Shown here piece after piece: positions 2,341-3,809 of a stretch of 5,744 bases of DNA. Every line of letters begins with the position of its first letter. Position 1 is the first letter of the stretch. Under the pieces are notes generated by a model, which did not search any database, was not told the DNA's origin, and saw nothing but the letters and a program-made list of their open reading frames with translations. The stretch lies in IMG/VR virus record IMGVR_UViG_2529292908_000002; one strand, 5' to 3'. This DNA comes from a virus (Duplodnaviria > Heunggongvirae > Uroviricota > Caudoviricetes). Both the position numbers and the translations under genes were made by a program.

Positions 2341-2437
2341 ATGAGCGAACAGTACCTGATAACGCTCGACGAGTGGAAACCAAAACGGTTCAGTCTCCCA
2401 ATAACAAACACTACCCTGGTGAAATACGGAAAACTAG
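2341..2437 (+). pseudogene. xis: Excisionase (lambda Xis family), 5' fragment (codons 1-32), interrupted by the IS5 insertion
   Basis: ATG at 2341 preceded by GGAG at 2329..2332. Translation MSEQYLITLDEWKPKRFSLPITNTTLVKYGKL resembles the lambda Xis N-terminus (MYLTLQEWNARQRRPRSLETVRRW...). The frame runs into IS5 and stops at 2458..2460, giving a 39-aa truncated product. Confidence 0.75.
2434..2437. repeat. Target-site duplication CTAG (left copy) of the IS5 insertion
   Basis: CTAG immediately abuts the left inverted repeat and is repeated at 3633..3636. IS5 is known to make 4-bp duplications at YTAR targets. Confidence 0.85.
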
Positions 2438-2453
2438 GGAAGGTGCGAACAAG
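2438..2453. repeat. IS5 left terminal inverted repeat
   Basis: GGAAGGTGCGAACAAG; matches the right end in reverse complement at 15 of 16 positions. Confidence 0.85.
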
Positions 2454-2505
2454 TTCCTGATATGAGATCATCATATTCATCCGGAGCGCATCCCAGAGGG
2501 ACATC

Positions 2506-3498
2506 ATGAGCCATCAACTCACCTTCGCCGATAGTGAATTCAGCACTAAGCGCCGTCAGACCCGAAAAGAGATTTTCCTCTCCCGCATGGAGCAGATTCT
2601 GCCATGGCAGAATATGACCGCTGTCATCGAGCCGTTTTATCCCAAGGCGGGCAATGGCCGACGGCCCTATCCGCTGGAGACCATGCTGCGTATTCACTGC
2701 ATGCAGCATTGGTACAACCTGAGCGACAGTGCCATGGAAGATGCCCTGTACGAAATCGCCTCCATGCGCCTGTTTGCCCGATTATCCCTGGATAGCGCCC
2801 TGCCGGATCGCACCACCATCATGAATTTCCGCCACCTGCTCGAGCAGCATCAACTGGCCCGTCAATTGTTCAAGACCATCAATCGCTGGCTGGCCGAAGC
2901 AGGCGTCATGATGACCCAAGGCACTTTGGTGGATGCCACCATCATTGAGGCACCCAGCTCTACCAAGAACAAAGAGCAGCAACGCGATCCGGAGATGCAT
3001 CAGACCAAGAAAGGCAATCAGTGGCACTTTGGCATGAAGGCCCACATTGGTGTCGATGCCAAGAGTGGCCTGACCCACAGCCTAGTCACCACCGCGGCCA
3101 ACGAGCATGACCTCAATCAGCTGGGTAATCTGCTTCATGGAGAGGAGCAATTTGTCTCAGCCGATGCCGGCTACCAAGGAGCGCCACAGCGCGAGGAGCT
3201 GGCCGAGGTGGATGTGGACTGGCTGATCGCCGAGCGTCCCGGCAAGGTAAAAACCTTGAAGCAGCATCCGCGCAAGAACAAAACGGCCATCAATATCGAA
3301 TACATGAAAGCCAGCATCCGTGCCAAGGTGGAGCACCCGTTTCGCATCATCAAGCGGCAGTTCGGCTTCGTGAAAGCCAGATACAAGGGGCTGCTGAAAA
3401 ACGATAACCAACTGGCGATGTTATTCACCCTGGCCAACCTGTTTCGGGTGGACCAAATGATACGTCAGGGGAGAGATCTCAGTAAAAACCGGAAATAA
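2506..3498 (+). CDS. insH: IS5-family DDE transposase (InsH-like), 330 aa
   Basis: Translation [37 protein letters not shown]...[25 protein letters not shown] is near-identical to E. coli IS5 InsH as I recall it. The C-terminal tail (…[11 protein letters not shown]) differs from the K-12 copy as I recall it (…RQWERSH), so this is probably a variant isoform. Confidence 0.92.
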
Positions 3499-3616
3499 CG
3501 CCAGAAATGGTGGAAAAAATAGCCTAAATAGGCTGATTCGATGTGTTTGCGGGAAAAAAATCGGCCCAGATCCGCGAAATTTTAATCAGCGAGTCAGCTT
3601 GGGAAGAAATGACCTG

Positions 3617-3632
3617 CTTATTCGCACCTTCC
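3617..3632. repeat. IS5 right terminal inverted repeat
   Basis: CTTATTCGCACCTTCC, reverse complement GGAAGGTGCGAATAAG. Confidence 0.85.
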
Positions 3633-3636
3633 CTAG
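3633..3636. repeat. Target-site duplication CTAG (right copy) of the IS5 insertion
   Basis: Directly follows the right inverted repeat and is identical to 2434..2437. Confidence 0.85.
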
Positions 3637-3809
3637 GATACATCGTTCCAAGACCACAAAAAATTCGTGGGCGTTGGCTGATAGATCGCCGAGCAGTATT
3701 TGTTGGGCCTGGTGAAACGGGAATTGCGCCGGAAATTCATACTGGCGATGATGATGCACTGAAGGAGATTTTAACTCATGTCACCGAGGCCACGAAAAAA
3801 CAGCACTGA
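3633..3809 (+). pseudogene. xis: Excisionase (lambda Xis family), 3' fragment, separated from its 5' part by IS5
   Basis: Frame from CTA GGA at 3633 gives LGYIVPRPQKIRGRWLIDRRAVFVGPGETG...KKQH, stop at 3807..3809. Removing IS5 plus one CTAG copy joins it in frame to 2341..2437, restoring an 89-aa Xis-like ORF. The 3' end overlaps the int start by about 30 bp, as in lambda. The Met at 3543 in the ORF track lies inside IS5 and is fortuitous. Confidence 0.75.

Follow-up and report, generated by a model that had tools for sequence, protein, structure and literature searches.

An ISKpn26 insertion in the lambda-type excisionase gene of an Escherichia coli DEC6C prophage

In phage lambda, the wing of the excisionase Xis contacts DNA and its C-terminal part supports cooperative binding and Int recruitment; wing and tail are required for binding and bending DNA, for cooperativity between Xis molecules and for recruiting Int. 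The lambda and HK022 excisionases (PDB: 1LX8, 1RH6, 2IEF, 2OG0, 1PM6) share with the protein studied here the order of their winged-helix elements, and their genes likewise lie upstream of, and overlap, a lambda-type int. Lambda Xis is 72 amino acids (aa) long, whereas the protein studied here has 89 aa and an acidic, helical C-terminal part.

ISKpn26, an insertion sequence (IS) of the IS5 family, is best known for knocking out mgrB and wcaJ of Klebsiella, whereas the target described here is an E. coli prophage gene. In mgrB, ISKpn26 was reported with a TTAA duplication, and its DNA identity to IS5 was given as about 91% (PMC10569121). IS5 proper (insH of E. coli K-12) belongs to the same family and length class and has the same first 12 end bases and the same target preference, and annotated IS5 insertions are already present in the records of phages 434 and P1.

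Lesions in int and xis caused by IS elements and frameshifts are a documented route of decay in E. coli prophages (PMC2669165). The defective prophages of O157 Sakai (Asadulghani et al. 2009, PMC2669165) are likewise lambdoid and were disabled by int/xis lesions and IS insertions, and “grounded” prophages in general are also lambdoid, with int/xis lesions and IS insertions (PMC6379469). O157:H7 genomes also carry the xis allele studied here. The locus follows these known patterns and involves neither a novel type of element nor a novel mechanism.

The window analysed here (5,744 nt) is the whole of contig AIFX01000045.1 in assembly GCA_000249635.2; a GenBank protein on this contig (EHV63734.1) gives the strain as Escherichia coli DEC6C. 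Its features are listed in Table 1. The exonuclease gene at its left end encodes, when intact, an 823-aa protein with a C-terminal Rv2179c-like 3'-5' exonuclease domain. Rfam had no match anywhere in the window.

Table 1. Features of the 5,744-nt window, with strand and basis of assignment
Feature	Coordinates	Strand	Description	Basis
Prophage exonuclease gene	1..2279	+	3' part (~92%)	ZH48 annotation, Pfam, alignment
xis 5' fragment	2341..2437	+	Codons 1-32 and first base of codon 33; contains the left CTAG	
Truncated Xis ORF now present	2341..2460	+	39 aa: 33 native residues plus KVRTSS; stop at 2458-2460	
Target-site duplication, left copy	2434..2437	.	CTAG	Direct reading, repeat finder
ISKpn26 (IS5 family, IS5 group)	2438..3632	+	1195 bp; transposase co-oriented with xis and int	
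Transposase	2506..3498	+	330 aa; DUF772 and DDE_Tnp_1	NF033581, PF05598, PF01609
Spurious ORF	3543..3809	+	88 aa; from IS right end into xis 3' fragment	
Target-site duplication, right copy	3633..3636	.	CTAG	Direct reading, repeat finder
xis 3' fragment	3637..3809	+	Remainder of codon 33 to residue 89 and stop; wing strands, C-terminal helix	
int	3778..4895	+	Lambda-type tyrosine integrase, 372 aa when intact	Pfam, ZH48 alignment
TGAATAA	5040..5046	.	Presumed 7-bp Int overlap region	Common to both potB/potC prophage ends
Qin-like remnant	5047..5744	-	J' fragment (5096-5383) fused to nohA (5380-5744)	

The original prediction placed an IS5-family element between flanking CTAG duplications inside an excisionase gene, and both IS ends could be located to the base where it had put them, with both copies of CTAG present. 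By direct reading, the left end GGAAGGTGCGAACAAG runs from position 2438 and the right end CTTATTCGCACCTTCC up to 3632. The terminal inverted repeats (IRL, 2438-2453; IRR, 3617-3632) are 16 bp long, start with GGAAGGTGCGAA and are complementary at 15 of 16 positions; together with the palindromic CTAG, the IS ends were returned by the repeat finder as a 20-nt inverted pair with 95% complementarity. Joining the two xis fragments restores the predicted 89-aa ORF, which is 270 nt long and whose product is 100% identical to the annotated excisionase of E. coli ZH48 (GenBank protein id: WP_000003742.1). When the IS and one CTAG were removed, the window aligned to the ZH48 prophage with 99.6% identity over 3855 nt; this alignment is gapless across the junction, and the sequence ...GGAAAACTAGGATACATCG... 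is uninterrupted in the ZH48 genome, so that the empty site exists as a natural allele. The proposed cut after residue 32 holds to within one residue; the IS end restores residue 33 (Gly), after which the six residues KVRTSS are read from the left end of the IS. The insertion and all its coordinates are confirmed.

Alignment to annotated copies of ISKpn26 and IS5 bore out the assignment to the IS5 family from ends and duplication; however, the element is nearer to ISKpn26 than to IS5 itself. It is 99.7 to 99.8% identical over its full length to PLSDB copies annotated as “IS5-like element ISKpn26 family transposase,” with 1193 of 1196 identities against one RefSeq-annotated ISKpn26 copy (two substitutions and one missing base), which exceeds the nucleotide identity of ~95% or more that we used for giving two elements the same name. 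Against an annotated IS5 copy, in contrast, nucleotide identity was 91.2%, and it was 87-88% in the 5' untranslated region. Positions 2438-2487 are identical over 50 nt to the published ISKpn26 IRL (PMC10569121). Thus the element shares with ISKpn26 its sequence (99.7%), IRL, 4-bp YTAR duplication, DDE transposase with DUF772 and the simple-insertion type of knockout. The transposase scored 366.6 bits against the IS5-family equivalog NF033581 (cut-off 140), and PF01609 and PF05598 were also matched above threshold.

Whereas the reference ISKpn26 is 1196 bp long, the copy in the window has 1195 bp. The missing base lies between positions 3468 and 3469, and the deletion replaces the last residues of the transposase, which is annotated as 981 nt (326 aa) in the reference copy. 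A sequencing error in this place was considered and rejected: 162 blocks of the sequence collection contain the 330-aa transposase, three copies were fetched from chromosome CP125911.1, and a second DEC6C contig holds a copy that is 100% identical over 1195 bp and flanked by its own CTAA duplication. The deleted form is therefore a multi-copy, widespread subtype. At other copies, the duplications were CTAA, TTAA, TTAG and CTAG, all of the 4-bp YTAR type, and two copies lacked matching flanks, as expected from recombination between IS copies. Since YTAR duplications also flank other copies of the same IS, the insertion in xis is not a matter of chance. The presence of the deleted subtype in many genomes, with its own duplications at different sites, suggests that it is active, although mobilization in trans is also possible.

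With high confidence, we interpret the locus as the result of transposition of ISKpn26 into a CTAG within xis, by which the prophage would have lost its own directionality factor in an ordinary step of prophage decay (“grounding”). A DDE transposase moved a copy of the element into the CTAG at xis codons 32/33, duplicating the 4-bp target. The case cleanly illustrates prophage decay, here through an IS whose reputation otherwise comes mainly from colistin resistance in Klebsiella.

In E. coli, the usual site of this prophage is the junction of potB and potC. Among 5,426 complete E. coli genomes, 1,628, including O157:H7, contain the 270-nt xis, and in 1,623 of these an unbroken stretch covers at least 80% of the gene. 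Phage records vB_EcoS-640R1 and vB_EcoS-813R8 contain an identical xis 5' region, which is consistent with an intact xis module in isolated phages. A query with the left junction between xis and the IS had no match in the 5,426 complete genomes, and an exact-pattern scan for this junction was negative in species-representative genomes and in JGI metagenomes. The right junction was found in two draft assemblies, GCA_002522425.1 and GCA_000703585.1. In both drafts, the contig starts inside the IS and continues through the xis 3' fragment and an intact 372-aa int into potC. In GCA_002522425.1, the xis-int sequence equals that of the window except in the int A-run and at the att-junction positions, and the IS has an A at position 3575, where the window has a C. 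In GCA_000703585.1, the IS also has 3575A but is of the undeleted form, and the int region differs by approximately 30 substitutions (~2%).

At least two IS subtypes are thus present at the same xis site in the same orientation, and this pattern could reflect independent insertions or equally a single early insertion, with later gene conversion between IS copies and recombination in int. Further xis lesions in the same prophage family comprise an IS110-family insertion, another junction and several frameshift alleles. Many short-read contigs start 1-6 nt after the CTAG. These were found by an exact partial protein look-up, which selects for such starts, and they carry no IS bases; a repeat or mosaic boundary at this point was rejected as their cause, as the 5' half of xis is single-copy in complete genomes.

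These alleles bear on the idea that the insertion is selected or regulatory. In one form, the CTAG would have been hit repeatedly by ISKpn26 subtypes in prophages at different locations and the insertions kept to lock a beneficial prophage in place; in a stronger form, the IS would act as a reversible excision switch, or it might change int expression through activating properties of the kind reported for IS5 ends. The different subtypes (1-bp-deleted with 3575C in the window, 3575A in the drafts), the undeleted form with a divergent int in GCA_000703585.1, the position of the prophage end (potC in the two drafts, a site in Qin in the window) and the other independent lesions in xis all fit such a view. 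However, YTAR occurs just twice in xis (CTAG at nt 94, TTAA at nt 232), so repeated use of the CTAG would be expected even without selection and calls for no special cause, and a single event followed by conversion and recombination could yield the same pattern. The allele is also rare, given the missing left junction and the at most five of 1,628 carriers without a contiguous xis, and we found no sigma-70-like promoter facing outward from the right end of the IS on the + strand. We therefore regard a selected insertion, and likewise a reversible switch, as unlikely, and count the possible recurrent use of this CTAG as a mildly interesting lead.

The preferred reading, decay by loss of the directionality factor, depends on the interrupted gene being a lambda-type xis. 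RefSeq names the 270-nt gene “excisionase” in every genome row listed, and the end of xis overlaps the start of the tyrosine integrase gene directly downstream by 32 nt. The rejoined protein matched the Pfam family Exc (PF07825) marginally over residues 7-58, scoring 23.2 bits where the gathering threshold is 23 (E=7e-5), and BLASTP against lambda Xis gave 29% identity (E=0.008). NCBIfam had no model matching this Xis or Int. In a PDB sequence search, the rejoined protein failed to retrieve lambda Xis at E<=10, so the link to lambda Xis rests on Pfam, the pairwise BLASTP alignment and a fold search. Nitrite reductases, the top matches in that sequence search, were dismissed as chance matches.

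For the fold search, AlphaFold was used to model an intact homolog with 98% identity to the rejoined protein, with nine relatives as alignment. Model confidence was moderate (mean pLDDT 61.5; core ~70-80). Residues 6-8 form a strand in the model (Xis numbering), followed by short helical turns (9-16), a helix (23-32), two strands (40-42 and 45-49) and a C-terminal helix (72-86). Foldseek against the PDB returned excisionases at all of ranks 1 to 6, with HK022 Xis at the top and lambda Xis, alone or bound to DNA, at ranks 2 to 6; matches below rank 6 had a probability of <0.1. The lambda Xis chains aligned over 51 columns with target-normalised TM scores of 0.69-0.77 and an rmsd of 1.9-2.2 Å. 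The likeness to lambda Xis proposed from sequence was thus upheld by a family match at threshold and by the six best fold matches. The pairwise alignment sets Gly33 opposite Cys28 of lambda Xis, at the end of the second helix, so that the wing and everything downstream are lost. Based on this alignment and the AlphaFold model of the homolog, the break separates the predicted second helix from the wing strands that follow it, in agreement with the expectation that the product ends before the winged helix is complete.

It is very unlikely that the 89-aa ORF encodes some other small winged-helix regulator, which would be no excision directionality factor and whose disruption would have a different consequence. 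The threshold-level Pfam score, the NCBIfam result, the PDB sequence search that fell short of lambda Xis and a 30-residue acidic, helical C-terminal extension absent from lambda Xis leave some room for such a protein; however, only Xis proteins top the fold search, the gene overlaps a downstream int with a lambda-type Arm-binding domain in the same arrangement as in lambda, and the RefSeq name is excisionase throughout the genome rows listed.

The interrupted gene yields an Xis that ends after the predicted second helix, without its beta-hairpin wing and C-terminal tail, and the 33-residue stub should be inactive because lambda Xis needs its wing and C-terminal part. The prophage has probably lost self-directed excision: in the absence of its own recombination directionality factor, it would not excise efficiently unless a related Xis were supplied in trans or the IS were precisely lost. 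E. coli strains often carry related prophages that could supply Xis in trans. In O157 Sakai, Sp4 and Sp14 were still excised without a functional Xis, apparently by Int alone or with the help of other prophages, so a broken xis is no proof of immobility (PMC2669165). Transcripts from upstream would also need to cross 1.2 kb of IS before reaching int, which makes a polar effect on int plausible. On the + strand of the IS, we found no convincing intrinsic terminator, just a single terminator-like hairpin, which is weak. Phage transcription under antitermination can pass through IS elements and can thereby suppress polarity. The significance of the insertion is local, as it would explain why the prophage copy in DEC6C, and those in a few related drafts, are probably stuck in the chromosome.

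The int gene of the window does not have an intact frame. A run of five A's at positions 4112-4116, in place of six in intact genomes, causes a -1 frameshift that leaves ORFs of 128 aa and 257 aa, whereas int of ZH48 encodes an intact 372-aa protein with Arm-DNA-bind_1 and Phage_integrase domains. This frameshift was missed in the original prediction; with int frameshifted in the contig, int is not simply awaiting transcription. Compared with references of at least 99.6% identity, the contig differs by five homopolymer-length indels, including the one in int, and by no other indels. The other four are single-base indels at A7 (390-396), A3 (404-406), A5 (483-487) and G4 (5526-5529, in nohA). 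The three in the exonuclease gene each add an A, so that the frame is shifted and then restored. This pattern looks like sequencing error, and the int frameshift may be such an error. An identical 128-aa int product is encoded by 19 further contigs, which come from unrelated samples, and therefore the frameshift allele exists in nature; in the six of these contigs that we fetched, xis is intact, and five run into potC. If the frameshift in the window is real, the whole int-xis module would be dead, and the state of xis would hardly matter.

An ordinary prophage end had been assumed on the int side; instead, this end adjoins a Qin-like remnant and not potC. TGAATAA, which lies at the potB stop codon, is all that the prophage ends of ZH48 have in common, and it is presumably where the 7-bp overlap used by Int lies. 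In the window, the int-side arm could be followed up to ...CACCTTATGAATAA (5033-5046), after which the sequence changes to TCAGGTGATCC..., which in a Qin-like cryptic prophage lies between a truncated tail-fibre gene and the J' fragment. This part of the window is 99.7% identical to the Qin-like reference apart from one G-run, and the local reference sequence reads TTTAGAATAATCAGGTG. The nohA gene, a homolog of Nu1, runs off the contig and is frameshifted by four G's instead of five at 5526-5529. The switch from phage arm to Qin falls exactly within the overlap region, and the Qin site matches six of the seven overlap bases. No complete E. coli genome contains this junction. Most plausibly, the integrase recombined the prophage end with a secondary attachment site, but the short draft contig may also contain a misjoin here; an apparent secondary-site att junction inside Qin is a second lead of mild interest.

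That the repeat-bounded 5.7-kb contig is chimeric, with the IS wrongly placed in xis by the assembly, is hardly credible: the window does make up a complete short contig of a draft, has five homopolymer-length indels against near-identical references and joins two prophages at its right end as in no complete genome, but the IS stands between perfect 4-bp copies of a target that IS5-type elements prefer, a duplication of the kind that repeat mis-joins do not create, and the identical right junction between IS and xis is present in two independent assemblies (GCA_000703585.1 and GCA_002522425.1).

One annotation could be set right. In the GenBank record of E. coli DEC6C, the product of the ORF at 3543..3809 is named as a YddA ABC-transporter protein; this “transporter” is a fusion ORF of the IS end and xis.

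At its int-side end, the prophage does not border potC but runs into a Qin-like remnant, at a point that lies between stfQ' and J'. The switch to Qin-like sequence occurs exactly within the 7-bp motif TGAATAA, which is common to both prophage ends at the potB/potC junction. The site in the cryptic prophage Qin is identical at 6/7 overlap bases and also shares AGGTG; based on this sequence agreement, the junction looks as though Int had carried out recombination at a secondary att site. We identified this junction in 0 of 5,426 complete E. coli genomes. Beyond it, nohA is frameshifted in the window by a G4/G5 run.

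Window features and coordinates
Feature	Position	Strand	Remark
Transposase gene of ISKpn26	2506-3498
Base absent from ISKpn26 subtype	3468/3469		CAGTGGG to CAGGGG
88-aa ORF	3543-3809		starts in IS right end, continues into xis 3' fragment
Equivalent of short-read contig starts	3637-3642		1-6 nt downstream of CTAG
int	3778-4895		A5 at 4112-4116
Homopolymer-length indels	390-396, 404-406, 483-487, 4112-4116, 5526-5529		versus references at least 99.6% identical
Prophage end/Qin-like junction	5033-5060		TGAATAA at 5040-5046
J' fragment fused to nohA (Nu1 homolog)	5096-5744	minus	arrangement as in Qin cryptic prophage, many E. coli

The integrase gene has a -1 frameshift relative to the intact 372-aa alleles, which carry A6 at the same run, and is split into ORFs of 128 aa and 257 aa. 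Contigs from other samples, 19 in number, encode an identical 128-aa product; six of these contigs were fetched, and xis is intact in all six. L019, from another draft assembly, has the same IS/xis junction as the window, and its int is intact. All five indels in the window are single-base changes in homopolymer length, and for this reason sequencing error in the draft contig is suspected. Three of them add up to +3 in the exonuclease gene, scrambling ~31 codons.

The same xis has been damaged independently in other genomes (L021:242-1516; L022:1-1034; proteins P0015, P0019-P0023, and P0025). These lesions include an IS110-family insertion immediately upstream of residue 41, further junctions at approximately residues 48 and 57, and several frameshift alleles. 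Dozens of short-read contigs (L025-L040) start just past the CTAG, and none carries IS bases at its end. A repeat boundary was rejected as the cause, as the 5' half of xis is single-copy in complete genomes; the pattern may in part be a selection effect, given that these contigs were found by exact look-up of a partial protein.

The single-base deletion in the window's ISKpn26 subtype swaps the transposase C-terminus, giving a protein of 330 aa. This subtype was found in 162 index blocks, and three copies were fetched from chromosome CP125911.1; because it is multi-copy and widespread, the altered C-terminus is apparently no bar to its spread. Two further copies (L014:9933-11127 and L016:9933-11127) have unequal 4-bp flanks (TTGT/TCTG and CTAT/TTAA, respectively), which suggests that IS elements have caused rearrangements or deletions there.

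In GenBank, the 88-aa ORF spanning the IS and xis is named "inner membrane ABC transporter ATP-binding protein YddA" (EHV63734.1, KDX19771.1); this annotation is spurious.
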